From assembly GCA_000091205.1 (NCBI GenBank), contig AP006500.2: DNA of 64,000 bases; one strand, given 5' to 3'. Under the pieces are notes generated by a model that was given only the letters and a program-made list of their open reading frames with translations, searched no databases and was not told the DNA's origin. Within the stretch, counting starts at the first letter, position 1; every line of letters begins with the position of its first letter. This document shows positions 1 through 59,241 of the stretch, one piece after another. The DNA is from Cyanidioschyzon merolae (lineage: Eukaryota). The position numbers and the translations under genes are program-made.

Positions 1-1338
1 GGCTCGAGATGTGCAAGGATGAACTGAAACCGATTGCAATCGGCTGGTCACAAAGGGCTACGATGCGTCTGCGCGCAAGTGTATGTATACCCTCTATGGT
101 CGTAGAACGCTGATCGTTTCACTGGTATGTACCCGCCCACAATGGAAACGAGAATTGAAGGCACACCTCAAGGCTATTGTAACTACTCCATTGCGAACAA
201 GGTCATCATATTCGTGTTTGCAATAGTCTCGTTTGTTCGCGTCTACATCGGCAGCATGAAAGAGATCGTCAGAAAGCGCATGCCGTGCATCGACGCTGTC
301 TTCACTCAGATAACCGCCGTATGGGCGCTTGTCGGAGAAATCCTCTTAACCGTCGCAGTGGCAGCGGGCACTTCTCGCAACAGAAACCGCTGCCGGCTTT
401 TCCCTGGATTGAATTCGGGTTGCTTTTGTTCGCATGGATGATAACGCTCGGGCGTGTCTGAAGATGCCAGGAGCGGGACACTCGTGAAGAACGATCCCAT
501 TCCGATACAGCTGGGGCCCCGAAACCACTTCCGAGTCCCTGACGCGTTTCCTTCCGAAGGGGAGCACAGCGAATGGCCGGCAGACCTTGAACGTCCAGTG
601 CGGAATAGCGGACGCTCTCCCGGATGCTGGCAACAATCGCGCCAGTGAGAGTCGTTGGTTTGTGTAAACGATCCTACACCTTAAAAGAACTGAAGCGTTC
701 CTCAGCGTTCCAGGTTATGTGGATTCTGGCCAGGCCTCCTCTTTTCATGGAGCAGGTGTCCTGGAAAGAGCGTCCTCCCTCAGAGATGACGCCAGGAGCA
801 CAGACGCACTGTAGACGAGACCAGCTTCCCAAGTAGTCCTATTTGTGTCTGGTCCCCTGATGCGAAACGCGATACCCATGTCTGGGTTTGATGACATTGT
901 CCCAGAGCTCCACGGCCGCTCAGCAATTACATATCTCACTGGATGTGTGTCAACGTAGATGCATCGCTCCGGTGGTGACAGGTCTGCAGGAGGCGCACGC
1001 GCGCGCACAGCGGCCGATCTCGCGCACTGACCGAAATAGCCCACCGAATGGGGGAGAGCGCCCGCGCGCTCGCCGCCGCAGCGCGCGCACGGCTGCGTGC
1101 GTGTCCCCGATCAGCCGGCCAGTCGTCCAGAGGATCGCACCAGCGTCCGATTTGGAAGCGGCCGCACACCAAAATTGGCCTCGGATCGATTTAGGCAGTA
1201 GGTCATTCGCGGCCTGTGTCTCTCCGATCATGAAATGAACTAGTTCGGTGTTTTGGCATTTAGCGGGTGTGCTCTGTGCGGCTTTGATTGCGACAGGAAG
1301 CAATTTTGCTTTGGAACCGTAACCGTGAACCGAAAAGA

Positions 1339-2031
1339 ATGCAGCGGTACGTTACAACAATACTCAGCGTTCTTTTGCTGTGTGGGCTGCTTTTCTCTGC
1401 TCCAGGAGCGATCAGAGCGGAGATCGAGTTGAGTCTGGTGGAGCTACCGCTCGATCTTCACCATTCAATGCCGAACTACCCTTCAGGAAACTTTCCGGCG
1501 CCGTCGCCGCTGCTACCGCACCCACCAGTGTATGACGAGAATCGCACCGCAACACTCATGCTGACTGGAGCGCAGGTGCAGAACAGCAACAACGCCGGCC
1601 AGAACGACTTCGGGGTCGGGGGTGAAATTACGTTCAGCTCGGGAATCAAGTATGCAACTGTGTTCCCAAATGAAGCGCCTGGAACGTTCAAGGTTGTGAA
1701 TGCTACAGAACTACTTTCCAACATTTCCTTCGCATACTTTGTGTACTACAAGCATCCACTGGCACAATACGCATCGCTGAATTTCCCAGCAAGCAACCCG
1801 GTAGCGAGCCTCTACCAGCCTAATCAGCGTAGTCCGAACTATACTGCCGGGGCAGTGGTGATCAAACAGTCGAACGTGATGCCGTCTTCGCACGGGTCGA
1901 TCTACGTGAGCTTCAATGTCTATGACCCACAGAACACATCCCGCGTCCCGAACATCCCGAGCAGTCTACTGGACATGGGTGTTCTGAGCATCTTGGATGT
2001 ACCTTGCTCGGGGGCTGGTATCGAGTGCTGA
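1339..2031 (+). CDS. Small secreted protein, paralog A of a three-member family in this window (signal peptide MQRYVTTILSVLLLCGLLFSAPGAIRA; several N-x-S/T sites; C-terminal VPCSGAGIEC)
   Basis: Uninterrupted ORF. ATG at 1339 read directly from the sequence (the track ORF begins upstream at 1288). Hydrophobic N-terminal signal-like segment. Clear protein-level similarity to ORFs 2957..3667 and 55602..56321: shared PP[VT]Y-x-N-RTAT-x-ITG, ATV[FY]P, G[ST][FY][KR]-x-[VI]N-x-T-x-LL, YY[KA]-P-[LI]A, F-[DN][VF]-x-DP-x-N, LLD[MF]GV and VPC-x-GAGI-x-C blocks. No match to any family I can name. Confidence 0.6.
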   Translation: MQRYVTTILSVLLLCGLLFSAPGAIRAEIELSLVELPLDLHHSMPNYPSGNFPAPSPLLPHPPVYDENRTATLMLTGAQVQNSNNAGQNDFGVGGEITFSSGIKYATVFPNEAPGTFKVVNATELLSNISFAYFVYYKHPLAQYASLNFPASNPVASLYQPNQRSPNYTAGAVVIKQSNVMPSSHGSIYVSFNVYDPQNTSRVPNIPSSLLDMGVLSILDVPCSGAGIEC

Positions 2032-2956
2032 CATAGGGATCGGGTTACATTCTTTTCATTGGCTTCATCGCAGGGTGTGCGTGGATCCACCGACAACCAC
2101 TCGCATGTGGTCGTCGTCCAGCACCAAGACGCGAACACGATGCGCATTCGGTTCCGAGACATCGTCAGCAGTGTGTTGGATCGGTTCTGTGAAAATTTTG
2201 GCAAGTAAAATGATACTGGCGTTTGGGGTTTCCAGAATTGATTTTACGGCGCACGACAAGTAAACAGACGAGCGTGTCGATCCATGTCGATGTGATTCGT
2301 CGCCACGCACGCAGAGAATCTCGTTGTTCCTTTCAGATTCAGATGAGCACATCGGTAGTGACTTGTTTGGATTCCACGGACCAGATGCCTAGAAAATGGC
2401 ACACGAGCGTTGGTCAAACGTCCAAAAGAGCTAGAGAAGGAAGGATTTTCAGCATATCCGCGGTGTCTCCTGTTCCACAATTCTGGTATTCTGGTCTTGA
2501 TGCACGCTGGTCGGGGTTTCAGCGATTGCCCTCGTGCAACATTTGCATCCACAAGATCTGCGCGAAGCATGGATTCTCCTATAACGTCGTGAAGTTTCCG
2601 CACCGAGTACCAGAATGTGCCTCAGAGTGCCTGTGCTGGTATTCGGCACCTCGTGTAGCGCGCATACCAGGAAGCACCGCCAGATCAGACGCTGTCTCTG
2701 TAATCCAAATCGGGTTTCTTTCGGGTGCGCCACGCGCGCGGCAGCTGCGTGCAGCGCGCACGCGGACACGTGCACACTCGACACCCAATTTGGACACTAC
2801 AGAGGACCAGGCTCGGGACCGTGCCAGACCGGGATATCCACTCTGTGTGTAGCACTGGACCGCTGCCAATGCGAAAGCTCGTGTGCAATTGCATTTGTCT
2901 TGATATCCCGCTCAGCCAGGGTGAGTTACAAAGATAGTGTTCATTGCGCTTGTACA

Positions 2957-3667
2957 ATGTCTCGCCGACACGCATTGGGTAGCGTTGTATTGCTGGTGTT
3001 GCTCCTCGTGGGAATTCGATGCTGCATATCCGCAGCTGTTTGGCCGCGTTCAGAGATCGACACGGCACTCCTGGAAGAGGTGCTCGGGAGCGTTCGCGTG
3101 ACCGAGTCTCATGATCATGAAAGCATGGAAGGTGTGCCGTCGCCACTCCCGTCGACACCACCGGTTTACGATATGAATCGCACCGCGACTGTGGTCATCA
3201 CAGGTACGCAGGTTGTAAACAGCAACGGTGCCGGGGAGGGCCCCTATGCCTACGGGCTGGGCATCAGCTTCTTGTCAGGAATCCGCTATGCCACGGTGTA
3301 TCCGAACAACGATCCCGGGAGCTTCCGACTCATTAATGCAACAGCTTTGCTGAAAAACAACTCCTTCTTGTATTTCATCTACTACAAGTCTCCGATCGCC
3401 CAGTACTCTGCAGAGAACTCTGCCGGAAGAGCTACCGTTGCGGATTTGTACACTGAAAACCAAACGAATCCGGATTTCGTGTCCGCAGCGGTGATGATCA
3501 AGAGGCTGCGCACCACCACGGGCAATCATGGTGAGTTCTCGGCCACATTCAGCGTGTTCGATCCCCATAATACGTCCGCATTGCCGAACATACCGAATAG
3601 TTTGCTCGATTTCGGCGTTTTAGGAATACAGAATGTGCCATGCGAGAATGCCGGCATCAGCTGCTGA
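2957..3667 (+). CDS. Small secreted protein, paralog B, tandem to paralog A (signal peptide MSRRHALGSVVLLVLLLVGIRCCISAAVWP; C-terminal VPCENAGISC)
   Basis: ATG at 2957 read from the sequence; the track ORF extends upstream without an obvious coding reason. Same conserved blocks as paralog A, about 45-50% identity by eye over roughly 180 aa. Same orientation as A, separated by about 0.9 kb. Confidence 0.6.
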   Translation: MSRRHALGSVVLLVLLLVGIRCCISAAVWPRSEIDTALLEEVLGSVRVTESHDHESMEGVPSPLPSTPPVYDMNRTATVVITGTQVVNSNGAGEGPYAYGLGISFLSGIRYATVYPNNDPGSFRLINATALLKNNSFLYFIYYKSPIAQYSAENSAGRATVADLYTENQTNPDFVSAAVMIKRLRTTTGNHGEFSATFSVFDPHNTSALPNIPNSLLDFGVLGIQNVPCENAGISC

Positions 3668-5456: not shown

Positions 5457-6170
5457 ATGGCCCTGTCGTGCTTTTGTGCCAAACGTACTTTCCAGAGCTT
5501 CGATCGAACGCCCCTTCCCGAGTATGAAGAGAACAAGAGGAAAGTGAACGCGATTGAGAGCTCACTGGGGCGTCTCATTCGCGACCTCGAAGCGGTTCAA
5601 TCAAACTGGGTTCGGTTGGGTGACGTCTTGAAAGCGTTCGCATCCGATCTCAGCGGCGCTCTACCTGAATCAAGCAGTGAGAACGTCAAGGATACGTCAG
5701 AGAAGCTGGCAAAGTCCAGCGAGGAGGTCGGGAACGAGTTGCGCCAAACGCTGACGGCGGAAAAAGCGTCCCCCTCGAGTAAGATTCTCAGTTACCTGAA
5801 AGAGTTCCGTAAGCGGCTTGCAGAGTGCAAGCAAAAGTCATCCAAGATGGAGAACCTGGCGAAAGACTACGACGCAAGACGGGCTGTGGTCGATGACAAG
5901 GAAAAGGCGAACACTCCCGAGCCTAAGCTGCAACGCGTTCGTGATCTCATGTATGAGGCGGAGATGAAGTTCCGTGAGGCCGAGAAGAACGTGCTTCAAC
6001 TGCAGAAATCCATCATAGATGACGCACCGTTTGCGTTCGAGGCAGCGATGGTCGGTCTCGCAACCATTCTGGCCGATCGGTCGCGTCTCTTGCAGGAGAA
6101 AGGTACGACATTTCGCACAATTCGCGACGCGCAGCTGGATGCAGTTCTGAAGCGCATCGATTCAACGTGA
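5457..6170 (+). CDS. Hypothetical charged, coiled-coil-rich protein (237 aa), possibly BAR-like; no family assigned
   Basis: Clean 714-nt ORF with an ATG start at 5457. K/E/R-rich, helical-looking composition. Coding-like codon usage compared with the GC-rich noise ORFs around it. I recognise no diagnostic motif. Confidence 0.4.
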   Translation: MALSCFCAKRTFQSFDRTPLPEYEENKRKVNAIESSLGRLIRDLEAVQSNWVRLGDVLKAFASDLSGALPESSSENVKDTSEKLAKSSEEVGNELRQTLTAEKASPSSKILSYLKEFRKRLAECKQKSSKMENLAKDYDARRAVVDDKEKANTPEPKLQRVRDLMYEAEMKFREAEKNVLQLQKSIIDDAPFAFEAAMVGLATILADRSRLLQEKGTTFRTIRDAQLDAVLKRIDST

Positions 6171-9628: not shown

Positions 9629-10598
9629 CCCTCGCTGACGGTTGCGAGTCGAGCACATGAGGCGAGCGACTCCATCTTCGTTCGTGGCCTGCATAAGCGC
9701 GACAGCGACTGCCCCTGACACCAACGAATATGGCGTTGGACAGGATGCCACGGCGAGTCGATGCGGCCATACCTGTTGCGTTTCTTTTCTGGCACTCCCT
9801 GAGCTTGGAAGATTGTCACAAGAACCGTATTTCAATCAGCAAGCTGTAGGGCGTGAGCGAGCACGAGCATGTGCGACTTGCTGGCCGGTGCATTTCCTTT
9901 AACCTCATCGCTGCAGCGCCTCGGTCAATGCACCATCAGAGGGATACGCATGCGTCTGTAAATGTCGGAAATCAGGTCGTGTGCCATGGATTCGTCATGA
10001 TGCCTTTTGGGGGCACCATGTGTACGACGAGGTTGGTCAGTGAGGCACGAGGCCACGGCTTCGCCTGTGGCGATTGCATCCGCCGGTGCCGCATGCCGCT
10101 GCCAAGAATAGTTGACGGGAGACAGATCCGGGCCTGTGGGGGCGTTTGTCACGCGGAGCGTCTCGCCCTGCTGGGAAGCGGAACGTCTAAAGTGTCAAGA
10201 AGCTTCGGTTTTAGCGGCATTGGCAAAGAAGTTGTGGCACTACGCGCAGTAATGGAGAACAACGCGACACGATTCGCCTCTACGAACAGCCCAGGAACAC
10301 CGTGCCCAGTGGATATGCAGACGGCGTTGCAGCGTTTCTGGGGTGGTAACGGTACCCTAATCATGCCTTGCGTGTGGCGAGAATCCAACGCCCACTCTCC
10401 TGGCCGCTGATCTTTTTAAATCGAAAATATTCAGCGTTCCAGCACAATACCCACACGGAGTACTTAATGATTTCCTCGAAAGTTCACTTGAAACAAAGAC
10501 GCTAGACGCTGCGGAAGCACGAAGCATTGGCGGATGTTGAGCGGGGCGCTCCAGTCTCGGTTCAGAAGCTGCGCGCGCGCATTGGTACTATACGGGAG

Positions 10599-10625
10599 AA
10601 ACACACACACACACACACACACACG
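10599..10625. repeat. (AC)n dinucleotide microsatellite
   Basis: Run of about 13 AC units read directly from the sequence. Intergenic. Confidence 0.9.
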
Positions 10626-12914
10626 CCATAGGCAGCTTCTCAACTTCGATAGCCTCGCCATGAGAAGTTCGATCCACAAAACCTACATAAATCTCGTGCA
10701 TGGTGCTCTGTTCCGCTCTCTTCTTCTCTACCTGTTTCAGCGTACATCCCAGCCCATAATGCGTGTACGTTGTCCTGAACACATTGATGGGAATCGTGTA
10801 GAATCGTTTCCTGCACTCGTTATACGATGTCGTCGATTGCGCGTTAGTGCAGCGCTTGTGCGCTCAAATACGTCCATGTCGTTGACAACCACCATGAAAC
10901 AACGCGACTCGTCAGTACTTTAGTTTTTCGGCTCCTTGAATAAGTTGGAAGAATGCGCAAGTCGTCTGGGTGCGCGCAACCGAACGCGTTGGCGAGACCA
11001 GCACAGACTCAGGTACTCCTGGCAAAAATCGTCTGCGTGAGGCAGTTGGACGCTCATACAATCTCTGAATAAAGCGCGCACAGCATTGTCCTCCAATCGA
11101 ACCGGTCGCCAGCGCGTAGAGAAGGGTCCTGATGGCACCAGTCCTCTTTTCGCTCAGCGTTGTGGCGTCCACCGTGCCCGTCTGCCCGTAAAATCGGGCC
11201 ACGGAAAAGTCAAAGAGCATTGTCTACGTTTTTGTGCTCAGGTCGTTGCCAATGTGCCTTTGATTTAGAGGTACGGAAACGGCGATGACGTCCTTCAACC
11301 AGGGATCTACGCTTAACGCAAATTCTTTCTCTTCATCTACTGTGGACGATGAGAAATATGTTTTGTTCCAGGGCTGAGGCCTAGTTTTGTGAGAGTTCGT
11401 GCAGATTGGTATTCAATTGGTCTCTGTTGCTTCTGTGAGCTTCGTTCCGCGTCATGCAAACATGAAACCACGAGCGGGCTTCGCGAATAATCTTCGCGAT
11501 GTTCCTTGAATGCATCATCGTCGCTCTTTAAGACTGACTCCTTTTTCCTTTTCTTGTTTCCTTTGCGGGATCACATAGATGTGAGCGCTATGCGCCATCC
11601 CTGGTTTTCACTCGGGAGGTGGATTTCGTCGATGGAGAATGGTTCTGAATTCCGCAAGCTGTACGGATGTATCTAGTTTTGCTCAAGTACCTGTTCGTTA
11701 CGTCCTCTGTCGCGAGCACGCCCATGGTCCGAATCGTCTCTTTCCACCGCCACCCGCGCACGAGCAGAGAAGTAACATAGCAGCTCAGGGCTGGCGAAGT
11801 TAGAGAGCGATTTGGAGGAGTATGGTGTTCCAGATGCAAACGACTCGTTTATTGATCCGTGAAGGCAGAATGCCATTTGACAACAGAGAAGAGGCCTTCG
11901 ATTGCATTGGACAGGCTAGACAAGGCAGCCACGAAGCGCAGCTGAGTGCTAATCCCAAATGCACACTCGTTGACCCTAGTAGAGTGGCAAAATTCGATTC
12001 GGCCTACGAGCAGGGCAGAGAAATGTGCGAAGAAGAAGCCACGTGTCGTGCATGGGCGAAGGATGAAGCGTAGAACGATCCTATCAGTTCGGCGAGTTGT
12101 TAGCGACCACAGGATCGCATGGCGGCAACAGCTTAAGATGTCGTCAATTTTGCGTGTTTCTTGTTAACGAGCAGCAGTTTGCCTCTCTTTTCGTACCCAT
12201 GCACAGGTCTTCCGCGTCTCCTGAACGAAGCCTCTTCGAGCGACATGAAGACCGTTCGTTCGTCTCCTGTGGATTCGTAGTTCAGTACGAAATCGGTAGT
12301 GTCTTGATCGACGCTCGACGGTTTCCCATAGGAGCGCGTTTTCTTCTGTGTCCGTTGGTGTCTCTTCATCATCGGTCACATCAACTGTACGGAAATATTA
12401 TATTGTGTAGCTTGTTTGGTATTATTTCTAAGAGAGCGTATGGCGTCGATCGGATTGATGAGACGACATTCGCGTGACTCGAGGTTCATGAGTTTACTGT
12501 CTTGGGTACTCGACCTTCAGAATAAAGACTAGGCGAAGAATGGTTCGTGCAGCAGCTCACCGAAGCACGACTGACTTGTTCAACTGAGACTCGTTCTGGC
12601 GAGCTCATCGTGACAGCGTCAAGTCTTCCCGTAACCTCTCTCCAGTCTCCAAGATACGTTCCTATTACTGAAACCCCGCGAGAGACAAAAACCAAAACAT
12701 TGATCGACGTGCTGCTACAGGAGCTCCAGCAAACACTGCTGTGCATATCTGACGCGTTACCGCTCCCGCTCCAACACGTCTGCGCACTAGCAGCACTCGA
12801 GGCCTGGCGCCTGCGCGATGCCGCCCGTGCTACCAGCACCACCACCAACACCAACACCGCCCTTGCAGCGAACTGTATTCGACTCCAATGTGCTGCAGTA
12901 CGCAATCGCTTGGC

Positions 12915-24415: not shown

Positions 24416-25377
24416 CCCGTTGGCGTAATACGTTCGTGCCCACAATCCTTGGGCAGATGCGTGTTCTCGGGGAGCGCTCGAAGTCATATCCAGCACCAGT
24501 GCTGATGCCGCACTCAATCAGAGGCGCTTTGGTGTTTACCGCTGATCAGCGAAACGAAAAACGTTTCACGACCATATAGGGTAAATACACATACCCACGC
24601 ATAGACGCCTACCGGCCTTTTTCGACTGGCCGCCTTCCAGCGGTTTCAGTCCATCCAGGCACACTTTGACGTGAGACGCTTCCCCCAGAAAGTTAGAACG
24701 CGTCAGCGCCTCCGGGCTCGTGTTCAGCGCCACACATCTTCTGGTATTGGTGGTGGCGTCAGGTCTCGGTTCACGAACTCACCAGTGCAAGCATTCCTCG
24801 AACTCGTACCCTGAATGCCACTACAGTCTCGTGATCATCCCGTCGGCCAAAGACCTTTTCTCGCCTATCTGCCCGCTTCTTCGCTCGATTGTCAACGAGA
24901 AGGGAATTTTTTCGCTCTTTTCTCGGGGAGCCAGCGATGACGACGCTCCCGGCTCCCTGACTTGCATGCCCGCCCCATTTCCCTCAGATTTTCTATTTCT
25001 TCAAATGAACGCACTTCGAGTACGTTCGCTATAAACCGAGAAAAAGCATCTGATGACAAGCACCTGGAGAAGGAACACCACTGCGTCGAAGGACTGTAGC
25101 GGACGTCGGTGCCTGCGGGCCTCGCGACGGAGCTGGAGCGCCCGTCCCGGCAGGCGGCAGCTGCGACGCGGCATCGTGTACGCCCGCCCCAGGGCATGCG
25201 TTCCGGAAAGCGTAGCCAGACGCTGACTTTCTCCAATACTAGTCGTAGTCGTAGCTGACGAGGTGCAGTGTCGACCCGTATACGCGTCCAGGTGTGGTCA
25301 TTGTTGGTGTCGCTCGTTTCTGGAAACGTTTCATTCAGTTCTACGTTGACCATAACTCGTAACGGTACCGCGGCTGC

Positions 25378-39974: not shown

Positions 39975-40210
39975 TGGTATGCATAACATGCAAGCACCAT
40001 AGGTACTGTGCATTTCTCTGGACTCTGTATCTTGGCTTGATATGGGCATCGTGATACCGATAACACGCAAGCACCATAGGTACTGTGCATTTCTCTGGGC
40101 TCCGTATCTTGGCTTGATATGGCCATCGTCATACCGATAACACGCAAGCACCATAGGTACTGTGCATTTCTCTGGACTCTGTATCTTGGCTTGATATGGC
40201 CATCGATGGA
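39975..40210. repeat. Minisatellite of about 76-78 bp in 3 tandem copies
   Basis: The unit gcaagcaccataggtactgtgcatttctctggactctgtatcttggcttgatatggccatcgtcataccgataacac begins at about 39991, 40067 and 40145, with 2-4 mismatches between copies. Confidence 0.85.
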
Positions 40211-40599: not shown

Positions 40600-41330
40600 C
40601 GGATTCTCATGCGTCGAGTCTGAGTGGAACCCTGGATACGCTGCTGCCGGAATTCGTTGCGTCACCGGATTCAAGATGATTCGCGATGCCCTCGAACAAG
40701 GCTTTGTGAAGCTATCGATATCATCATCCAATGCAGACGTGCAAGCATGCACTCTTTTCCATTCCCTGTGCAAAGGTCGCTGAAATCATGCGATCTTTAG
40801 GATGTCGATCTATCCGCTTCCGAGCAACTGTTGGTCGCAGCAATTCACGCCCCCCGATTGACGAGGAAAGAAGATCGGCGTCGTCCGTTGACGTTTTCTT
40901 CACAAGCTCGTGCCGCAAGTTCACTTACTTTGCCACGTCAGCTATTCGATTCCGTTCGAGAGACAAATCACTCTCTTGTTGTGGCCGTCGACGACACCGC
41001 ATACGACAGCATCACCATACCGCTTATGGGGTTTGCTTCCAAGGGCTCCCTTCTCTTCTGTCTACATGGAAACGTGTCTTGGACTGGGAATCGAGTCATT
41101 GCAGTGATCGCTTCCAGAGGAACGTACGTCATCGCTCTGCTCCAAAGGAGCGTAGACGGATCGACACATCCCTACCTGATCCCTGGCCTGAATGATTTTT
41201 CCGTGACTCGTTTCATGATGGACAACATCTCTTTCCATACACCATCTGTTGAATGGAACAGCATGTGCTTGCGTATGCAGCGAGCAGCCTACCTGCCAAC
41301 TGGGTCGCTTCGAAAAAGCAGCCCGTGATC
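40600..41330 (+). pseudogene. Copy 1 of a diverged dispersed repeat; a degenerate, frameshifted coding copy of an unknown protein (paralog of 50908..51600)
   Basis: Three track ORFs in three different frames (40490..40783, 40731..41195, 40831..41328) together resemble the single-frame ORFs at 50908..51600. For example GFKMIRDALEQGFVKLSISSSNADVQACTLFHSLCKG matches GITMIHDAYEQGFVQWTIRSSNSSVQASILLDSLRKA, and FMMDNISFHTPSVEWNSMCLRMQRAAY matches FMMDKIAFHKSSLECNSVHLCMQRTAY. Confidence 0.55.
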
Positions 41331-42092
41331 ATAGGGCACGGCACCGGGCGCTGAGACAAAGGACGGCATCGAGGATTGCACGCTTTACCAGTCGAAGGCG
41401 TGTACAGCATGAATAAGCAAACGTTCACGCGCCACAGAGCGGCCCCCGGGAAAGGAAGCCTCGTAGACATCTGGGATTACCGGACCACAATCCAGCGTCA
41501 CCAGAGCGGTGGACGCACCCAGGATGCATACGAAGAAGATAAAAATCGCATGCGAAGCGTACATCCCAACCATCGACTATGCATCGAATGCGTTGTCCGC
41601 AGCTGGCAGCCGCGAAATCGGGGCATGCACGCTGCCATCATCACCCATGGACTGCTGACGATAAAGCAGGAGGCAAAAAGAGAGACCGGCGTTTCAGAGA
41701 CGGATCCAGGAAAGAGGAATCGGAAGCAGTCACAAAAAAATCCCGAAAATGGCAGATGCTGAATTTGATGAAAGTAGAAGGACATCAAATCTTTAGCATG
41801 TGCGCCCGTTTTCGTAGACCTGTTCCATTTCTTTCTGACATGCGCACAGCATCCCAGCGCGCTGCTACGTACTTGATACCCACCAAAGTGCATCTCGATC
41901 GCTGCAATACGTCGACCAAGACATTGAGGGCGTACCAAGGGCGCTGTGTTCATCACGCAACAAACCTGGGTCTGCGCCAAGAGCGCCTCCAGCGGCAAGC
42001 AACTGCCGCAGCTTCATTGTCTGAACCAGACCAAAACCGTCACGTATAGGTTGCAATGGCACTCGAACACGCCTTGCTCATGTCTACCTCGC

Positions 42093-49219: not shown

Positions 49220-50907
49220 ATGCACGCAAGTCCTTGCGCACGAGCGCTACTGCTCCAAATGTCTGGCAAGCTTGTGAGAGGCGGCAGGCCCTGATGCCTG
49301 CATAAGGGTGCAGCGTCTCTCACTGTATAAATTGTTCGTGTTTGTCATAGATTGTGTTCAATGGAACAAGAAACCTTTCGCTGCCACGGATGGTCACTAA
49401 ATACCCACGCACAGACGCCTCCAAGTCATTTTATGGCCGGGCACCTACGATCGGCTTCAGTTTCTACCTGCACACTTCGAGCCTGAGGGGTTGTCCCCAT
49501 GAAGTAAGATCGCGTCAACTCCACGGGTCTCAGCTACAGCACCGCACGTCTCCTGATATCGAGGGCGGCATGGAGGTCTTGGTTGAAGAACTCCTTGCGT
49601 GCATTGATGCCGGTTGAACTCACCAAGGCATGGAGGAGTCCTCGAACTCGTATCCTCTACTCCACGAAAACCTCTTCACCGTCATGTCGGGCAAACACTG
49701 TTGCTCGCTTATCTCCACCCTTCTTATTCTTCGTCACTTGCTCTTCTGCGCTCGATGGACGGCGGGACGAGAATTTTCTTCGTTCTTTCGTGGAACCCCG
49801 GGATGACGGCCCTCTACTACCGCCGACTTCCATCCCCGAAACTTTTCTTTAGATTTTTGTACGTTGGAAATGAATGCACTTGTTTATGTCCCTAGGTGAG
49901 GTCCGTCCCGGAGGGAGAGGGACTTTCGGGACAGAGACGACATGTGCACCGGTGTGCCGCCGTGTGTTGAACGCTTCAGCGATTCACCCAAAGGATCCGT
50001 CGGTACTTTTAACGATACAAAGCACTCCTTCAATACCGTTGAACCATGGAGCGTACCGAGGAATGAAAAGCAGCTCTATGCCGATCGAATCGCCAATAGC
50101 TCGAATGCAGCGGCAATGGTGAAATACCACGTTGTCCAATGGAAGGATGTCGCCAGACGCTAGTGGAAAAGTCGTCGATGATGCGACGAAGCGGTTGGCG
50201 GTCCTGCATGCGCCTTCTCTACGGGCAAAACTGAGGCAGCCAAATAATTCCACTCCAGCTAGACCAGGGGATGATATCGTCGTTCTCTTCGAATTCAATC
50301 GTACATTCAACTGGCTCCTTGCTCCGCGAATATCCGAAAACACTCCAACTGTTTGGTCCGAAAGACGTCTCATCGACTGGAAAAACAAACTGACGTCCCT
50401 CTGCTTCATTCCGATCGCGACGTTCCAGGAACACTGTAGCTGCGATTTCGGCGGAAGAAGGCTGTGTGTGAAATTGGACTCTGTTTTTGCAACCGTATCC
50501 CCGTGGTTTCGGTACGACACGAACAATCCGCTCAGAAGCAGAGACGCTGGTGTCAGCCTCTATCGTCGCTTTGCCTTTCGTAAGGAGATCAACTGGCCGT
50601 TTTCTACCATCGACAGCGAGCAGACTTGGAGAATATCCGGTTTTGACGAAGAGCGCGTATAATTGTTTCTTTCAGTGTTCCTAAAGCATCTGAGTACTGT
50701 GGTATGACTGACCTGATGGAGGAGTGCAGTCCTCCTCGCTCTGTGCAGTAAAGAGTATATATCTTATAGGCGATTCGTCTACGGTCGATGGGGTACATTG
50801 TACGGGGATTTCGATCCCCTGCTATGCACCGCAGCGGAAGTGAAACAGAAACGATTCGAAAGACTGGAAGGCGTACGGATTCATAGCCAGATTCAGGATT
50901 TTCGGTC

Positions 50908-51600
50908 ATGCCTTCCGCGTCGCATCTTGGAATCTTTGCTGCTGGAATTCATGACGACACTGGCATTACAATGATTCACGACGCCTACGAACAAGGTTTC
51001 GTACAATGGACGATACGATCATCCAATTCAAGCGTACAAGCGTCCATTCTTCTCGATTCCTTACGGAAAGCATGCTCGAATGACGTATTATTCAGATTTT
51101 GGATCTTTCTGTTTTAAGGCAACTCGTTGGTGCAGCCATTCGCGTCGCTGGATGGACCAGAAAACAAAACTCGTTGTCGCACAGTGACAGCTTCTTCACG
51201 GATTCATGCCTACAGTTCCCAGAATATTGCACGTCAGAGAAGCGGTTCCGTTCGAATCACAAATCCTCCACTCTTCATGGCCATCGATGAAATGGCATTC
51301 CACAGTAGCGCGGCACCTCTCACGGGATATGCTCCAAGCGGTTCCAGTTTCATCTTCTTGAATCGAAAAGGGTCTTGGACTCCGAATCCAGTCATCATGT
51401 CGTTCGCTGCCCATGGAGCGTGCGTCACCGCTTCGCCCGAATGGAGCCTAGAGATATCGACAGTTCTCGATTTGTTCTCCCACACTGATTTTGCTTCCGC
51501 TGCATGCTTCATGATGGACAAGATCGCGTTCCACAAATCCTCTCTCGAATGCAACAGCGTGCACTTGTGCATGCAGCGCACAGCGTACTCGACGATATGA
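50908..51600 (+). pseudogene. Copy 2 of the diverged dispersed repeat: a near-intact coding copy (one in-frame TAA at 51118-51120) of the same unknown protein as 40600..41330
   Basis: ORFs 50908..51117 and 51127..51600 are in the same frame, separated by a single stop. The protein-level similarity to copy 1 is higher than the DNA similarity. It may be a real gene containing a sequencing error or a recent nonsense mutation. Confidence 0.5.
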
Positions 51601-52261
51601 GCAGCCTGAACAAGCGCTTGATCGAAGCATACGGAAACGGGCCCGGAAACGAAGGAGTGCAACGAGGGGCGACTTTTGCATCTGTCAAGGGCACGTAACG
51701 AGTGATGACGCCAGCATTCACGCTGGATAGTCCAGCGTTTGGCGGAACAGGTGTCGCGGACGTATGGGAGCAACTCAGCACATCTAAGAGCCACGATTGC
51801 GCTGGACGCACCAAGTCTGTGTACAGAGACGGTGCGAATGGCAAGCACAGCATAGATCACTACTGCCATATGTGCATGAAGTGCTTTGACAACGGGTGAA
51901 AGCTACGAAATCGGGACTTGAGCGCTGCCATCAGCATCCTCGGACGGCTAATAATTCAGCTGGAGCGGAAGCAGAGACCAGCGAATCTAAACCCGGAGAG
52001 AAGAGACATGGATAGAAAGCACCCGCAGAACAACCCGAAAAAGACTTGTGTTGATGATCGGTGGACGAGTCCAACATTTTACGGGGTACGCGCGATTGAA
52101 CTACCCGAACCTGTTCTATTTTATGCTTACTTGGGTGTCGTGCGCTTTCGAGCATGAACGTGATGCGAGGCGCTTTCGGAACGCGTTTCTGCAGGGGCGC
52201 CGCGGGTCGGAACCCAGAAACGAACGCTTGAACACTTCAGTCGACGAGATCGTCGCTCTGC

Positions 52262-53977
52262 ATGACTGCAGCTAGTCCCGGGGTGTCTGTACCACCGTGG
52301 TACGGTAATGATACGGAAACCAGAGACCGCATTCTGTCAAAACTGCGTATGGCGAGGCGACGACCCGCCAGTCGAGACCACTGGCAGTTCGTTGTAAAGC
52401 GTTTACGGTTGTGGCTGGGGAGCGCGGACGGGAAACAGGTACGCCCTCCGTGCATGCTCATTCTTGATCTCTATCCGAACGGAGCTCTACGCGCTCATAA
52501 GTTTCCACCAAACGCAGTTAAAGACGGCAGGCTGGCAACGGCCTGGGAGATGCTCGAGTTCCTGCTGGATGAGGTTCTCACGCCGCAGCGCGAGAATGCG
52601 GCCAGTTTACGCCCCGCGAGCATTAGTTTTACCAATCGGAACATTGCAAGAGCGCTCGCGGACCCCGTTCGGTTTCTCGTTTGCGAGCAAGTGACGCAGG
52701 ACCTGCACGCACTGGTTTCCAGAGCAGGGTCTGCAGCGGCGGAGGCGGACTGCTGGAGCCCGCCTGTCCTCGCTGAGGCGGATGGCGTTCGCGAGTTTAT
52801 GCAACGTTTCGCTCAGAACCTGATCGCTAAGGGAAAGGGTGCATCGAGCACGGCAAGCGAGGCACCTGGTCTGATACAGGGCTTGCTCGCAGGCGGAGAA
52901 CGGCGCGACGGCCGTCCGGATAACCGGTACATTTTGCAGGCTCTACCCCTGTCAAAGTGCGAGCTCCTTGTCGGCCAGTACTACTGTTTAGCATACGCGC
53001 TCTTTCATCGAAAGCCCTGGGATGAGTTACCTGAGTCGTGGCTTTTCCGTGTGGAGAGCATCTGCGTTGAACAGGTGATGCAGCGGCCTGTGGCAGAGCG
53101 GTGGCGAAGGCACGTACGGTTTCTTGCGGTGCTCGGCGGCGAGACCCCGGGATTCGTTGGTCTACCGTCTGTCAGGGCAGCCCGTAAGCGATACGCCGCG
53201 AGTATGCGGCGCCTCAAGAAAGAGACCGAGGAAGGTTCGTCGACCGTATCAGAAGCGGAATCGCTAGACGCCCCCCTGTATCTGCCGTCGGAAGCCGTGT
53301 CGAGTGTGTCTGCGGATAGTATCCCTGACGTTGTTCTTTGCGCGTTTACTGGCCAGATCATTTCCGGTCCAAACGCAAATCGATGCAGCCGATGCAAGAG
53401 TGCTTACTATATTGACGAGGAAGCTCAGCGGGCAGACTGGAGCCGCCACGCCACTGAATGCGATGCGATCGCACAACTGAGTGCCTCCGCCGCTGCGGTG
53501 TCGTTGCGCCCAGGGGCACCAGAATGCCCTCAGATCTCGCGTCCATTCTGGCGCTATGCAGAGCTTGTCCATATCTATATGGAGGAGTCGTCGCTAACCT
53601 TTGACGACCTTGATGCGATCGAGGAGTATGCCTGGCCGGTTGCGCGTGACGCCCGAAACGGATGGCCTGTTCCCTTTGTAACCGTAGGCGGCCACGCGCT
53701 GCCACGGCCCAGCGTTGAACGGCCCAACCTGGAGGAGCTTTCCTGGATGATAGCTGTAATGGAGTGGATGCTGGAGCATCAGGGAATAGCGCGGCTCCGA
53801 TCTGGGATGCAGATGGGACGCTGGCAAAACGATTCGATTTCATCCAGCGCTGCCGCTGGGCAACAATCTGCACAGCACGTGGTTTTGCTTTCCGTTGAAC
53901 CGGTAGAGGATATGAAGCAGACAGCTATCAGTAGGTACTGCGCGGAGCCGTCGGCGAGCACCGCTGCCATTGGATAA
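52262..53977 (+). CDS. MYND-type zinc-finger protein (571 aa)
   Basis: CAFTGQIISGPNANRCSRCKSAYYIDEEAQRADWSRHATEC fits the MYND finger C-x2-C-x(7-10)-C-x2-C-x(5-7)-C-x3-C/Q-x3-W-x2-H-x3-C. ATG at 52262 confirmed. The rest of the protein has no recognised domain. Confidence 0.6.
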   Translation: MTAASPGVSVPPWYGNDTETRDRILSKLRMARRRPASRDHWQFVVKRLRLWLGSADGKQVRPPCMLILDLYPNGALRAHKFPPNAVKDGRLATAWEMLEFLLDEVLTPQRENAASLRPASISFTNRNIARALADPVRFLVCEQVTQDLHALVSRAGSAAAEADCWSPPVLAEADGVREFMQRFAQNLIAKGKGASSTASEAPGLIQGLLAGGERRDGRPDNRYILQALPLSKCELLVGQYYCLAYALFHRKPWDELPESWLFRVESICVEQVMQRPVAERWRRHVRFLAVLGGETPGFVGLPSVRAARKRYAASMRRLKKETEEGSSTVSEAESLDAPLYLPSEAVSSVSADSIPDVVLCAFTGQIISGPNANRCSRCKSAYYIDEEAQRADWSRHATECDAIAQLSASAAAVSLRPGAPECPQISRPFWRYAELVHIYMEESSLTFDDLDAIEEYAWPVARDARNGWPVPFVTVGGHALPRPSVERPNLEELSWMIAVMEWMLEHQGIARLRSGMQMGRWQNDSISSSAAAGQQSAQHVVLLSVEPVEDMKQTAISRYCAEPSASTAAIG

Positions 53978-55601
53978 TTGGGTAACTTGGTGGATCTTTC
54001 GAAGCCTGGATACAAAACGGCAGCGGTGCACTAGATGACGCCTGAATGGTTGCTTGCTCGTAAGCAGATGCTGCCCGCTCTACACACCATGGCGAGACGT
54101 TCCGCATATCATAAATCGGCACTCGCGCTCGCAGCTCGCCAGTAAGCTACCAACGATGCTTTGTCACCGTTGGTACGCACGGTTGCGAACTTGACCGCTA
54201 GTCCTCTTTCCCGCCTTGCTCTACCCGAAGTATTGGCCATAGTGCGATGTGCAAACGTCGACAACGGTTGGGAAAGCAGCCTCACCGTTCGTTTTTCTGC
54301 CCACATGAGTGGATCTACTATGCCACGCTTCAGGTCCTTGGTTGCCTCCAGGAAGACCCCGAGCTTGGGCAGCCAAGGGCTGTCTCTGGCACTAGAAAAG
54401 AAATCATCTGCGGCATTGGCGGTACTCGTGTTCACGTGCATGCAATGAGGTCCGTCACCAGGGTTCTTGGCATCGCAGTAGCCTCGGCGCTCGGTGCGTG
54501 AGACTCTATCGACCGCATGCCTCGTACACCAGGGAACATTGCTCTCGCGGGGTGGCGGCGCGTGACCACCTCTCCCGAAGAGATGTCGTTGGAAACTCGG
54601 CAACTGGCGAGACCCGTGCGCCCGGGTGCGTCTGGTTCAACTCATCGATCCGAAACCAAAAAATCCGCCACATCTGCGCACCAGAGTCTGGAAACCCCGG
54701 AATGCAACACCTGGCCGTACAGAATTCCAAAGCAGAATATCGGTGAGGTTGCGTGCCTCTTTCCATCAAGTTGCTTCTTGTGTAGGACTCGCCTCGATGG
54801 ACCGCAGCCGATGATGCATCGTTCGGCGGCACCCTTTCCAAAGGCCTTCGAGATGACGCACGCAGGAGCATGTCAAAACTTTTCTGATTCCGTACGGTAT
54901 CCGCGCCAGGGTCCATCCGGTGCAGCAGTAGATGCCCCCGGTAGGATCAGTACCCGGGAAACCGCGCCCACGAGCCAAAGTCCCCGCAGAAGATGTCCGT
55001 TCTGAGGTTCGTGCAACTCGGAACCATCTGGAACGTCCCGGACCGGGTGTCGCTTCCTTGACTGCTAGGGCACAGAGTGCATCCCCAAGATTCCTGGTTC
55101 GTCTCATCGATGCTACACCATCGGAAAAAAAGCCCCTCAAGGCAGCATCCGCCGCTGTGCGACACCGCATGCATGCACGGATGTGCGGCACACTTGTGAC
55201 ACATAGAGACACGCACGCACCGCGGCCTCGTGTCGTGACACGCGCCGCACGCACCCCACGCTGCGTGGATCGATGCGTGTCGGGCACGCAGGCACCGCGG
55301 CCGCGATGGCGCCCTGCGATGATTGCCGAATGCGACATGCGTGGACATGGCGCGGGCTGTGGCCCCTCTGGCGCGGGCCTTCGCGTGCGGATCATTCGTG
55401 GCCGATGACGGGGCAGAGGGCGCCCAGACACCTAATTTGGATCCAGGCCTGGGTGCGGAAAGGCCACGCTGGTGACGGCGCTCGCGACGACCTAGCACCT
55501 TTTTTGTCTTCGATGAGGGCTCTGGATCCAAAATTCCTGTAGAGTAGGTGTTTTGACTGTTTCGTTGGTTTTTAAAACGAGTACTTCATACAGAAGAGAA
55601 T

Positions 55602-56321
55602 ATGCATAGAAACAGCTTGTTTGTGTTAACGTGCCTTGCCTTGATTGTGCTTTGCAGGGCGAGCGCTGTGCCGACAGAACCCTTAGAGCAGCAGGAGCAG
55701 CAGCTGTTGCTGGTGCCGGACTCGCTTCTCGAGCGTCAGAGTTTCATCGGAGGCGTGGGTGAGAGTGTTGGATCGGGGTCGCCACCCTTCCCGTATCCAT
55801 CGCCGGCTCCGAACCCGCCTACATACAACTTCAGCAGGACAGCAACTGTTCTGATCACTGGCGCGAACATCCAAACCGATAACCACAGTCAGACGAACGA
55901 CTTTCGCGCGGATACGGAAATCATTTTTGGAGGTGCGTTGGAGCACGCAACCGTTTTCCCAGACGATGCCCTCGGAACATACAAGATCATCAACGGCACA
56001 GAACTGTTATCCAGCGAGCAGTTCATCAACTTTACGTACTACGCAAAGCCGCTGGCGTACTTTACCGCGACAGACTACCCAGTCGCCCGCTACTCTCTGG
56101 CCGCGAGACTCAACTCTCCTAGGGTCATCAAATTTGCGTCGAACGCATTAGCGCTGAAGCAGCTCGTCGCTGTTGCTCGCGGCAGTGACTTTTACGTGGC
56201 GTGGCGCGCTGTCGATCCTCTGAACGAGTCAAGCAGACCGGACCTTCAGGATGCCTTCTTTGATTTTGGTGTCATGTCCATCCAGAAAGTTCCTTGTACG
56301 GGTGCAGGTATAAGCTGTTGA
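55602..56321 (+). CDS. Small secreted protein, paralog C of the family at 1339..2031 and 2957..3667 (signal peptide MHRNSLFVLTCLALIVLCRASAVP; C-terminal VPCTGAGISC)
   Basis: Same conserved blocks: PPTYNFSRTATVLITGANIQ, HATVFPDDALGTYKIINGTELL, YYAKPLAYF, DAFFDFGVMSIQKVPCTGAGISC. ATG at 55602. Similar length (239 aa) and layout. Confidence 0.6.
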   Translation: MHRNSLFVLTCLALIVLCRASAVPTEPLEQQEQQLLLVPDSLLERQSFIGGVGESVGSGSPPFPYPSPAPNPPTYNFSRTATVLITGANIQTDNHSQTNDFRADTEIIFGGALEHATVFPDDALGTYKIINGTELLSSEQFINFTYYAKPLAYFTATDYPVARYSLAARLNSPRVIKFASNALALKQLVAVARGSDFYVAWRAVDPLNESSRPDLQDAFFDFGVMSIQKVPCTGAGISC

Positions 56322-57594
56322 TAGCTGGAAAGACGTCCGACTCGCCCAAGACTTTGCGGAACTGTTTTGACGGCTTGGATCGTGAGGGATGAAACCAAAT
56401 ACGTAAAGCGTGTTGTGTGATTGGGGCTCGTTTTTTCCAGAGCAGCGAACGCATCATGATCCGGAGCAGAGGTGATCTCGCGTCCCTGTCTCATGAGCGG
56501 CAACTTTCGGTATGGAAGACCCCATTTCTTGGGGCCGACCAGCGAGTCCGTTTGACGTCTCGCCAAGCGCATTCGCTGTGGTGGAATCCCAGTAGGTGCA
56601 CAGCGTACCCGACGCTGTGCGACTGAAGCGATCGCGAGCACCGCTTCTGAGCTACGCGACACCTCGGCTCACTAGGGCACGCTTCGGGTATTGCCTGTGA
56701 CGTAAACGGCCTTGAGGACGATCAAGCGCCCGCCTATCGCTTTCGCGCAGAACATGTGATAATCCGACCGACTCCTCGAGCCGACCGCCATCAAGGCACC
56801 GGGAACCCGTCGTGTTGCCGTGTGGCGACAAGCGCGGCGTATCCAGCATCGCAGCGAACGTCAAGGGCAGCGTCTCGACACTGGGGTGTCTATGTGCCTG
56901 TCTCTATCCGAACGCTATTCCAGACAGGAAGACTCGTCTGACGCTTATGGGACGTCCAGCGTCTATGGGCCCGTGGCCGACAATTCCCTGGTTACTGACA
57001 GTGATCGCGTGTCCGCCGGGGCTGGTTAGAATCATCGTTCTTACACCACTAAAAAACCCGACCGAGGCATTTGGTTTACGCGTCTGAGCACATACTTCAT
57101 ACCCGCGGAGCGCAGTGGCTCTTCGGAAGGAAACACCAGGAATTCATTCCAAAGCGGAGGCCCTCTTGCTCGCCTGTATTCTGCACAGGTGCAGGCGGCT
57201 ACGAAGCATTCTTCTACGCAACGAATCCGGAAAACTGAAAGCTTTCCGCCGTCTCTTGAAACAACGACATGGGCTCGCCTGTGCTGGTGGCCGAGTCCCG
57301 GTTCTATGACTCGCTTTCTCAAAAGCCAGGAAGCAACGCAGGCCAGTGCTCGCGCGCACCTGTATGTCATCGTAAACAGAGAGCCATGGGCCCGCTGGCC
57401 CCAAAGTCGGCAGACAACACGGGCAGTGCTCGTGCGCCCCTGCACGTTCTAGGAAACAAAAACCCCGGGTCTGAGCAAGCGCCACAGCACTCCACTGCAG
57501 TTCACTCAGAAGGCAAACCAACCGCGAGAAGACCACACAAACATACACACACGAAATAACTTTCCGCTACAAGGGACCCCCGCCGCGACCTTCC

Positions 57595-58041
57595 CTAGTC
57601 TTCGTAGACACGGCATTCGTCCGCCTCTGGGACTTCATTACAATACTTTTCCAACGGATCTTCCGACTGTTTGTTTGCAGCCTGGTGGGACCGCTCAGCC
57701 TCGAGTTCCTCGACGAAATCCCAGGCTACTTTGGCCTCCTTGCTTGCTTTCCCATATTTCTTCGCCGCATCTTCTGCGTTCTTGATAGCTTCCTGAATCT
57801 GAGTGTTGAGCTTTTCGTTCGCCATCCGCAGCGCAGCGACTCTCGTCGTTTTCCTCGTCCGCAAAAACGTCCGTCGCACGGCAAACGTTGCTCTCGTCTT
57901 GCTCACTGATACGGAAGAAAAGTGTGTGGCGTTCGAAGGTACAATCAGAAATGCAGCCTTCATCCCTTGAAACGTTACGGGTACAGCAGTCGCGCTGAAG
58001 CAAGATATTTCGTGCTGAACGCGAGCGACGGCGATGCGCAT
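57595..58041 (-). CDS. CP12: CP12 (Calvin-cycle GAPDH/PRK regulatory protein) with a plastid transit peptide; it has the C-terminal Cys pair but no N-terminal Cys pair
   Basis: The C-terminal half AKVAWDFVEELEAERSHQAANKQSEDPLEKYCNEVPEADECRVYED carries the CP12 core AWDxVEEL and the C-x7-C...YED C-terminus. The N-terminal 60-80 aa are S/T/R-rich (SNATHFSSVSVSKTRATFAVRRTFLRTRKTTRVAALRMA) with no preceding signal peptide. ATG at 58041; an alternative at 57963 (MKAAF). Confidence 0.8.
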   Translation of the reverse strand: MRIAVARVQHEISCFSATAVPVTFQGMKAAFLIVPSNATHFSSVSVSKTRATFAVRRTFLRTRKTTRVAALRMANEKLNTQIQEAIKNAEDAAKKYGKASKEAKVAWDFVEELEAERSHQAANKQSEDPLEKYCNEVPEADECRVYED

Positions 58042-59241
58042 TCGTCGCGATGTACGGGTGCTGCACGCACGCGCAGCGCCCAGACGCGATGATGAAGTTG
58101 CGATCGACGGCGATTTTAAAAACTGTATGAACCTGGATATTGTGGACTACGCCGTGTTTCGTCCGTGATGCACGACGTGTCCGCCGTCGTGCGCGCGCCT
58201 TCACGCGATGACTGGCGGCTGCCGCGCGCGAACGTCAACGGATCGCGCTTGGGCGAGCGATATAAGAGGCCAAGTCCGCACGCATAAGCATCCCATGCAG
58301 GCTACCTCCTTCCAGTGCCTAGTGGCTCTAGAGACGAGCGTTGTCTGGTAAGAACCATTCTATTGCCTTTTTGGAAGCGTCTATTGCATTCCGAACGATC
58401 GCTGAGCTGCTAATCGATTCGCGACGCCCCGGAAACCCCTCTATACCTTACGCGATCACTGAGTACGAGTCTTGACAGGAGCGAGTCGAGCACCTGCTAG
58501 CCTGAAAATACGCCCCGCTCGTGACAGATTACTGCCTGTCACGTGAAATACGCCTAGCTCGGCATGTGATATGCTCGTTTCGAGACCAGGATCCGAGCGG
58601 ACGCGGTCCACAGAGCCACTGAACGCCCATGCCCAGAAACTGTCTATCACAGCGGCAGCTGGAGCAACGATCCAGTCCAGATGCTCGCCACTCGGGAGAG
58701 CCTGCTGAAGGGCGGGCGTGACTTATTTGAAATCGCCAGACCGACTGCCGCATCGAAATTCTCATGTTACGAAGCTCACTCCGTCGCCTCTCTGCACACG
58801 GCAGCTGCAGCGCGGGCCAACCGATGACCGTACCCGTATCGAGTCGATCAGCGGAACCGCACCGAGCAAATGTTGCGCGGGGACGCGCGAGATTCTTGAC
58901 GGCGCATGCAATGCATCGCAGCGCACGCTGACGCGTGCGGGTCCGTGCGTCGAGCCGCTGATGATCCCCCCGTGCGGTAAGATGTGAACGAATGCGTTAG
59001 ACTAGAGCTGGCGTTTTGCGCTCGAGCCATGTGCCAAGACTCGTGACGCCCGCGAGACAAGTATATTCTTCAAGTGAATAACATTTTTCGACAACCACAC
59101 TGATCTCTACAGCGTCGCTGCTCGCTACGACTTGGAAGCAGTGCCGACTCTCTGTGACAGACCAAAATTTTTGCCGAAACATTTGGGCCCAGTTCTGCGA
59201 AAGAATCAAGCGGTTACAGGGTCTAGAGACTTGGTTAAAAT

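Follow-up and report, generated by a model that had tools for sequence, protein, structure and literature searches.

The DNA described here is a 64,000-nucleotide stretch of chromosome 18 of the thermoacidophilic, unicellular red alga Cyanidioschyzon merolae 10D (contig AP006500.2), called the window throughout and meaning the whole of the stretch analysed, in which G+C is ~55% and the open reading frames (ORFs) are intron-free and well spaced. Three of these ORFs, here copies A, B and C, belong to a family of small proteins that, together with a short box in its promoters, is the subject of this report. An earlier reading of the same letters, referred to below as the original prediction, had picked out three related ORFs at these positions, and they are indeed clear paralogs, of 230, 236 and 239 amino acids (aa):

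1339..2031, + strand: copy A, CMR293C, 230 aa, identical to XP_005538545.1 / BAM82509.1, a "hypothetical protein".
2957..3667, + strand: copy B, which falls into the 90% cluster of CMR295C and is that gene; 236 aa when read from the start that its orthologs support.
55602..56321, + strand: copy C, 239 aa, of a divergent C-type subfamily, 52 kb from A and B.

In tblastn searches of the window A and B share 49% identity (E 3e-61), A and C 39-41% (E 6e-38 to 1e-41) and B and C 34-35% (E 1e-27 to 2e-30); no fourth copy is found in the 64 kb with any of the three proteins as query, the next matches having E > 1. Self-blastn of the window does not register A, B and C as DNA repeats and therefore the likeness between them is at the level of the protein, as had been proposed. 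The start of copy B had been placed at 2957 by the original prediction, whereas the public model of CMR295C is 350 aa long and begins at an ATG at 2615, which adds an extension of 114 codons (2615-2956). As the B orthologs are 236-237 aa long, and the reading frame of the B ortholog in a sister genome is closed by a stop 9 codons before its ATG, the annotated start is, judged from these comparisons, 114 codons too early and 2957 the better choice.

Orthologous loci were compared in an uncultured sister lineage (L001-L004; NCBI GCA_041825655.1, JGI hot-spring metagenomes), in Cyanidiococcus yangmingshanensis (L015, L016) and in Cyanidium caldarium (L005, L017). Between C. merolae and the sister lineage the nonsynonymous divergence (dN) is 0.16-0.19, with an amino-acid identity of 74-79%, and the synonymous divergence (dS) is 2.9 for the A pair and saturated beyond calculation for the other two pairs; all that the genomes still share in the A-B spacer is a single 32-bp match (E 0.03). 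Because dN lies far below a saturated dS and the intergenic DNA can no longer be aligned, A, B and C are genuine genes maintained by purifying selection, and the view that they are selected genes and not decayed repeats has stood up. The orthologs of A are 77-79% identical to it and those of C (P0018 and P0019) ~79-86%, again with synteny kept. Chance ORFs or decaying repeats would fit an annotation that goes no further than "hypothetical protein" and a full-text literature search that found no publication mentioning the gene IDs or accessions of the family; family genes are also not listed in the supplements of a nickel-stress RNA-seq paper, and short Logan contigs that hold them have no poly(A) tail and are therefore no proof of transcription. 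The probability of this explanation is nevertheless negligible and the comparative data exclude it, as in addition to the pattern of divergence just described there are intact orthologs in four lineages, conserved motifs, glycosylation sequons and promoter elements, and confident AlphaFold models.

The family has a narrow range. A word-indexed search of 5.8 billion proteins returned 6 clusters when copy A was the only query and 12 when a profile was used, and a HMMER profile run against 1.84 billion cluster representatives recovered only family members, one chimeric model and two false positives. The latter, P0025 and P0026, were rejected as low-complexity or Kelch-repeat proteins, and P0024 (EukProt Cyanidium caldarium, 1251 aa), considered as a multidomain relative, is a chimeric or mis-framed model in which residues ~1000-1100 correspond to the N-terminal half of P0023. 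All named members come from Cyanidioschyzon, Cyanidiococcus or Cyanidium, and the family is absent from Galdieria in profile searches and in the orthogroup table, where the entry for OG0001022 groups CMR293C with two genes of Cd. caldarium, two of Cc. yangmingshanensis and none of Galdieria partita (PMC13353863). A metagenome scan yielded only C. merolae-like strains, 99.5% identical, and no added diversity. The family is thus as lineage-specific as the original prediction had supposed.

That prediction had also taken the tandem pair and the distant copy to be signs of an expanding family, and here the comparison points the other way. The A, B and C types each have an ortholog in Cyanidiococcus, and Cyanidium has A-like and C-type genes; synteny is kept both at the tandem locus (the cluster, an unknown 237-aa gene, DnaJ and STI1/HOP) and at the C locus (zf-MYND, the C-type gene, CP12 and HSF), and therefore the duplications predate these genera. 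In the sister lineages there is a third tandem copy, the D type (L001 7873-8568; Cc. yangmingshanensis 15G3886), which is 64-65% identical to A and continues past its last Cys with GSAS or GTRH; in C. merolae-like contigs the 2.5 kb that precede A contain no such copy. The family is therefore old and stable, and is slightly reduced in C. merolae by one tandem copy. Directly downstream of the tandem pair lies CMR298C (5457-6170; L005 8867-9592), a conserved protein of 237 aa in which Asp, Glu, Lys and Arg (D+E+K+R) make up 34% of residues; it has no Pfam match, and entries of the orthogroup table place its orthologs in Galdieria as well (PMC13353863).

The N-termini of the three proteins carry hydrophobic cores of 11 residues within the first 25, each followed by a small-x-small site (AIRA before E, ISAA before V and RASA before V):

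1339..1419, + strand: predicted signal peptide of A, 27 aa, cleaved between ...APGAIRA and EIEL; core ILSVLLLCGLL, Kyte-Doolittle 2.98.
2957..3037, + strand: predicted signal peptide of B, 27 aa, cleaved between ...CISAA and VWPR; core VVLLVLLLVGI, Kyte-Doolittle 3.63.
55602..55667, + strand: predicted signal peptide of C, 22 aa, cleaved between ...CRASA and VPTE; core LFVLTCLALIV, Kyte-Doolittle 3.14.

In a rule-based check all three copies look like classical secretory proteins, and the cores together with the -3/-1 rule uphold the signal peptides that had been proposed. Outside this region no second membrane segment is found in the three window copies (maximum 19-residue hydrophobicity 0.85-1.44), and direct reading of the sequences finds no C-terminus of the KDEL/HDEL type. 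There is likewise no signal for a glycosylphosphatidylinositol (GPI) anchor, the proteins stopping at the second Cys of a C-terminal motif or 1-4 residues beyond it (GIEC, GISC, GIYCGTRH); a GPI-anchored wall protein like FAS1 or arabinogalactan proteins (FAS1/AGP-like) was ruled out as the hydrophobic tail is missing. C-terminal lipidation of the CaaX or CXC kind was dropped because the distance of the motif from the C-terminus is not fixed, some members having 1-4 further residues.

Sequons of the form N-x-S/T number five in each window copy where composition predicts 1.5-2.7, so that the sequons that had been noticed are there whilst the count of 6-8 given for them was too high. Three positions are kept in every subfamily, namely after PPxY, at N-[AG]-[TS] before ELL and at N-x-[ST] after DP, and high-mannose N-glycosylation has been shown for LOXL, a secreted protein of the same lineage that bears a signal peptide (PMC6508830). 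The C-terminal motif that had been pointed out is borne out: V-P-C-x-x-A-G-I-x-C with its pair of Cys is invariant in 14/14 aligned family sequences, and in the mature window proteins its two Cys are the only ones:

1999..2028, + strand: C-terminal motif of A, VPCSGAGIEC, with Cys223 and Cys230.
3635..3664, + strand: C-terminal motif of B, VPCENAGISC, the invariant family motif.
56289..56318, + strand: C-terminal motif of C, VPCTGAGISC, the invariant family motif.

Mature A, B and C are poor in charge: D+E+K+R make up 10-17% of their residues, where 16 further window proteins have 18-34%, and K+R 3.4-6.5%. They are rich in N/Q/S/T and Pro. Such a composition is to be expected of a protein that has to stay folded at an external pH of 1-2. 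It would also suit an acidic vacuole, and signal peptides and sequons indicate entry into the endoplasmic reticulum (ER) only; the proteins might therefore be residents of the endomembranes or of an acidic vacuole that are glycosylated and never exported. We regard this as quite unlikely, given that there is neither a transmembrane anchor nor a KDEL/HDEL signal, that every member terminates within the Cys loop or directly behind it, that no vacuolar sorting motif was recognised, and that Galdieria has the same organelles yet no member of the family.

A variable linker does precede the conserved domain, although it is only ~25 aa long where ~45 aa had been given. The Pro-rich stretch before PPxY (FPxPSPLLPHPP in the A-type, PFPYPSPAPNPP in the C-type) is conserved within subfamilies and modelled with a predicted local distance difference test score (pLDDT) of 75-96, and therefore the folded domain extends to ~180 aa; in the C-type subfamily the string FIGGVGxSVGSGxPPFPYP is also conserved ahead of the domain. 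An AlphaFold2 model of A built on the family alignment (pLDDT 78.7, predicted template modelling score (pTM) 0.74) and a second, independent AlphaFold model of a trimmed C-type protein (pLDDT 83.0, pTM 0.81) have the same order of elements, in which three strands are long (14-16 residues), several others are shorter and two helices are short. The Pro-rich segment, ~15 aa long, is the only one in the protein; there are no repeats and no extensin-like Ser-Pro runs, and a hydroxyproline-rich or extensin-like wall glycoprotein was set aside since Ser-(Pro)n and (X-Pro)n repeats are lacking and the segment packs on the barrel in the model.

The inability to place the domain in any family, conceded at the outset, has persisted. 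Pfam gives 0 families at E<=10 for the three window proteins and, with 12 members scanned singly, one stray HEAT_2 match only (E 0.13), and an hmmsearch of a 12-sequence profile against 177,635 distinct PDB chains gives 0 matches at E<=10. Structure prediction, which had been put forward as a route to a known fold, delivered confident barrels, and matches to known folds at noise level only: the best Foldseek match has E 0.011 and a template modelling (TM) score of 0.24-0.34. There is thus no match to a known family or fold, the structural comparison having covered libraries other than those of the AlphaFold database. The best of these matches for both models, the E2s or P domain of the hepatitis E virus (HEV) capsid (PDB 9iy2, 8pmw, 7bv0), resembles the family model in being an all-beta barrel with ~100 alignable residues, and is itself an exposed domain; calicivirus P domains, Hcp, the Upf1 1B barrel and domain II of translation factors recur in the same searches, and all that can be read from these matches is that the domain is a small closed beta-barrel. 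At the scores given, the likeness to HEV-type barrels is generic and is no evidence of homology.

Two further explanations turn on the nature of this domain. Secreted enzymes of an unrecognised class, for example for glycan or wall remodelling, would be consistent with weak matches to GH110; these are to accessory barrels and at noise level, there are no Pfam or PDB sequence matches, and the invariant residues of the family (Pro, Gly, aromatic and hydrophobic residues, the Asn of putatively glycosylated sites, one Lys and the two Cys) form no catalytic-looking constellation in the alignment and include no His, Asp, Glu, Ser or internal Cys for a catalytic centre, which makes this highly improbable. 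The main alternative, somewhat unlikely though realistic, is that the proteins are soluble, acid-stable binding proteins of the secretome or cell surface (lectin-like, nutrient- or metal-binding, or a protective coat) and not building blocks of a wall, made in haploids or in both phases under a factor other than a MADS protein. The evidence for a secretory route and for adaptation to acid applies to it equally, a compact single-domain barrel without repeats resembles a binding module more than a fibrous matrix protein, and the weak best structural matches are to viral P domains that bind receptors; on the other side no ligand-binding signature was found and the sole invariant charged residue is the one Lys. 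Further evidence on this alternative comes from the promoters and from the life cycle.

Short-word comparison of the regions upstream of the three genes found an element near -170 that contains, or nearly contains, a CArG box, and copy B has a second element close by:

1166..1178, + strand: promoter element of A, ACACCAAAATTGG, holding the perfect CArG box CCAAAATTGG (1169-1178), at -170 of the ATG.
2781..2793, + strand: promoter element of B, ACACCCAATTTGG, CArG-like with 5/6 A/T core bases, at -173, inside the annotated 350-aa coding sequence.
55428..55440, + strand: promoter element of C, ACACCTAATTTGG, holding the perfect CArG box CCTAATTTGG (55431-55440), at -171 of the ATG.
2762..2772, + strand: second promoter element of B, GCGGACACGTG, containing the G-box/E-box CACGTG, at -195.

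The pattern ACACCNAAWTTGG has 3 matches in the 64 kb, all in gene orientation at family promoters (170-173 bp upstream), and 0 in 100 shuffles, a count that speaks to uniqueness in the window and is not an independent test because the pattern was derived from these sites. The predefined pattern CC(W)6GG has 2 matches in the same 64 kb, where 1.45 are expected, and they fall at -170 of A and -171 of C; the chance of both lying at a near-equal offset from two of three paralogous starts is of the order of 1e-6. The box of B departs from the pattern by one C within the A/T core, and the three promoters thus carry the CArG box looked for in MADS-domain targets, perfectly in A and C and at 5/6 in B. 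The conserved promoter motifs of B at 2762-2772 and 2781-2793 are overlapped by the non-conserved extension of the public CMR295C model.

The same box recurs at orthologous genes. In ~133 kb from four lineages perfect CC(W)6GG occurs seven times, and 7/7 lie 103-176 bp upstream of family ATGs. The A-type orthologs in two sister lineages have CCAAAATTGGCC, as in A itself, at -163 and -176, the D-type has the perfect CArG box CCAAATTTGG at -153, and the C-type orthologs have CCCAATTTGG at -168 and -163, with CCTATTTTGG as a further, perfect box at -104 and -103. For the A-type gene of Cyanidium the box near -164 reads CCAATTTTAG, and its tandem partner has CTAAAAATAG, the sole site of the MEF2 type (YTA(W)4TAR) in all the DNA examined. 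The boxes of the family therefore stand as a phylogenetic footprint in DNA that is otherwise unalignable, and they are very probably functional cis-elements. At the B-type genes the core GGACACGTG, which lies beside CATTTTGGCC in the sister lineages, is conserved in all three close lineages, and the full 11-mer GCGGACACGTG is found again at -192 in L001, with GTGGACACGTG in Cc. yangmingshanensis, which suggests that an extra regulator may be specific to the B-type genes. CCAAT was also considered as the shared element and dropped, being present in only about half of the sites: in the three close lineages the CArG consensus fits 8/10 family promoters against ~5/10 for CCAAT. This comparison tells against binding proteins driven by a non-MADS factor, to which the CCAAT inside about half of the boxes otherwise lends support.

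Protein has been recognised since 1968 as the main constituent of the Cyanidium-type wall, which is thought to exclude protons at pH 1-2, and to our knowledge its protein components are essentially unidentified. Recent work has shown that C. merolae 10D is a wall-less haploid, and that Cyanidioschyzon, Cyanidiococcus and Cyanidium have a walled diploid phase, the one encountered in natural habitats (Hirooka et al., Plant Cell 2026, PMC13353863); 10D having no wall, the cell-wall function offered as a possibility by the original prediction works only for this recently discovered phase. Cellulose synthases are absent from these algae, the wall is 50-55% protein according to an older analysis, and 35-50% of genes for secretory proteins differ in expression between the phases (PMC13353863). 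Each genome has one MADS-box factor, of the MEF2 type and predominantly or exclusively diploid, which in Galdieria is needed for the transition from haploid to diploid and the targets of which are still to be identified (PMC13353863).

Taken with the family's own features, these observations lead to the explanation we favour. An old family of three types, limited to the Cyanidioschyzon/Cyanidiococcus/Cyanidium group, has A, B and C among its functional members, and we have high confidence that the family is real, targeted to the ER, restricted to this lineage and unplaced among known families. The diploid-specific MADS factor would drive transcription of its members through the CArG-type box that lies ~170 bp ahead of each start, and the proteins would enter the ER by means of a cleaved signal peptide, be N-glycosylated at the three conserved sites and fold into a compact barrel-like domain of ~180 aa, the last strand of which would carry the Cys-x6-Cys loop. 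They would then be exported as soluble, charge-poor, acid-stable glycoproteins and deposited in the protein-rich, cellulose-free wall or extracellular matrix of the diploid, a destination that is proposed because walled diploids are where the MADS factor is mainly expressed; the Cys pair might serve as a staple between the C-terminus and the last strand or form intermolecular cross-links. What we infer is the destination of export, which factor binds the box and the role in the wall, and to the whole chain, from acid-adapted secreted glycoproteins of the diploid wall to their control by the MADS factor, we would give a probability of about 0.4.

A number of points weigh against this chain. Diploid-specific expression of the family members is presumed, as is the disulfide between the two Cys. 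The wall-less 10D keeps A, B and C intact, which would fit a role outside the wall as well, and with few Lys and no repeats the proteins show no specific sign of being a structural wall polymer; the only criteria for the signal peptides and their cleavage sites were hydrophobicity and the -3/-1 rule. With regard to the promoters, the boxes were scored with CC(W)6GG, C(W)8G and YTA(W)4TAR, and the family boxes are of the SRF type rather than the MEF2 consensus. About half of the boxes also hold CCAAT, so that NF-Y or another protein may be the binder, the B-type orthologs in the sister lineages have only the degenerate half-site CATTTTGGCC, and the C-type promoter of Cyanidium has no recognisable box. 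That the wall-less haploid strain retains three genes under purifying selection also suits soluble binding proteins made in haploids or in both phases; against this, a passage in PMC13353863 states that haploids have not been observed in nature, and selection would then act mainly in diploids.

Comparison with known systems bears on the proposed diploid wall proteins in several ways. Walls of Chlamydomonas and Volvox are built from secreted glycoproteins cross-linked through Cys or modified residues and encoded by lineage-specific multigene families. The likeness of our family to their hydroxyproline-rich glycoproteins and pherophorins is a functional analogy only, as it has no Ser-Pro repeat rods but a single short Pro-rich segment (FPAPSPLLPHPP) and one globular domain, and neither Pfam nor an exhaustive profile search detected homology to these wall proteins. 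Closer to hand are the FAS1-domain proteins, LOXL (CMN144C) and the TFF-like proteins, which are small signal-peptide proteins of the same organisms (PMC13353863, PMC6508830). For LOXL both secretion and N-glycosylation have been demonstrated (PMC6508830), and the LOX and TFF-like genes share the range of the family, occurring in Cyanidium, Cyanidiococcus and Cyanidioschyzon and not in Galdieria. They differ in having no sequence or domain relationship with the family (Pfam negative), and diploid-predominant expression is documented for the FAS1, LOXL and TFF-like genes whereas for the family it is an expectation. As regards transcription, A and C (perfect) and B (one mismatch) resemble the targets of SRF-type factors and the CArG targets of plant MIKC proteins in having the box at a fixed promoter-proximal position that is conserved in orthologs; the red-algal factor differs in being of the MEF2 type, and its binding to the family boxes is predicted only.

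The window has some further features that do not touch on the family. A non-coding element of ~1 kb is present in three dispersed copies (40642-41691, 50937-51983 and, inverted, 62336-63291) with 65-66% DNA identity, each lying in a local dip in G+C and having no long ORF, Rfam match or tRNA. To the left of one of these copies, at a distance of some hundreds of bases, is a 77-bp tandem repeat (39983-40205; 2.9 copies, 95% matches). There are also dispersed pairs of intergenic repeats with 67-72% identity, 10386-10826 with 46233-45820 and 24591-24881 with 49401-49725, one pair being inverted. The long ORFs fall into three same-strand blocks (1-26406, +; 26698-49225, -; 52262-60375, +), to which no significance is attached; the layout recalls the polycistrons of kinetoplastids, an origin that exact matches to C. 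merolae records rule out.

What was already public about these genes amounts to hypothetical-protein annotations and one orthogroup table, and it is the descriptions of the family, its fold, its C-terminal motif and its promoter element that appear to be new. At its most ambitious the interpretation would be that the family is a new fold forming a major disulfide-linked glycoprotein layer of the acid-proof, cellulose-free diploid wall of Cyanidiaceae, and that its three to four paralogous promoters are the first direct regulon to be identified for the ancestral MEF2-type MADS factor of Archaeplastida; we think this unlikely, but if true it would tie the function of a MADS protein in a unicellular alga to the building of the diploid-phase cell surface. 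Even if expression turned out to be constitutive, an orphan secreted family would have been described and the CMR295C model corrected. The family provides candidate wall or surface proteins with a matching taxonomic range, and an acid-stable secreted scaffold without recognisable relatives may be of use in structural biology and for the engineering of secretion in C. merolae. Furthermore, the compact promoter element may give access to phase-specific transcription in an alga that is amenable to genetics, and with a CArG box at a fixed position on the one hand, and a single diploid-phase MADS factor without known targets on the other, a current question becomes directly testable.

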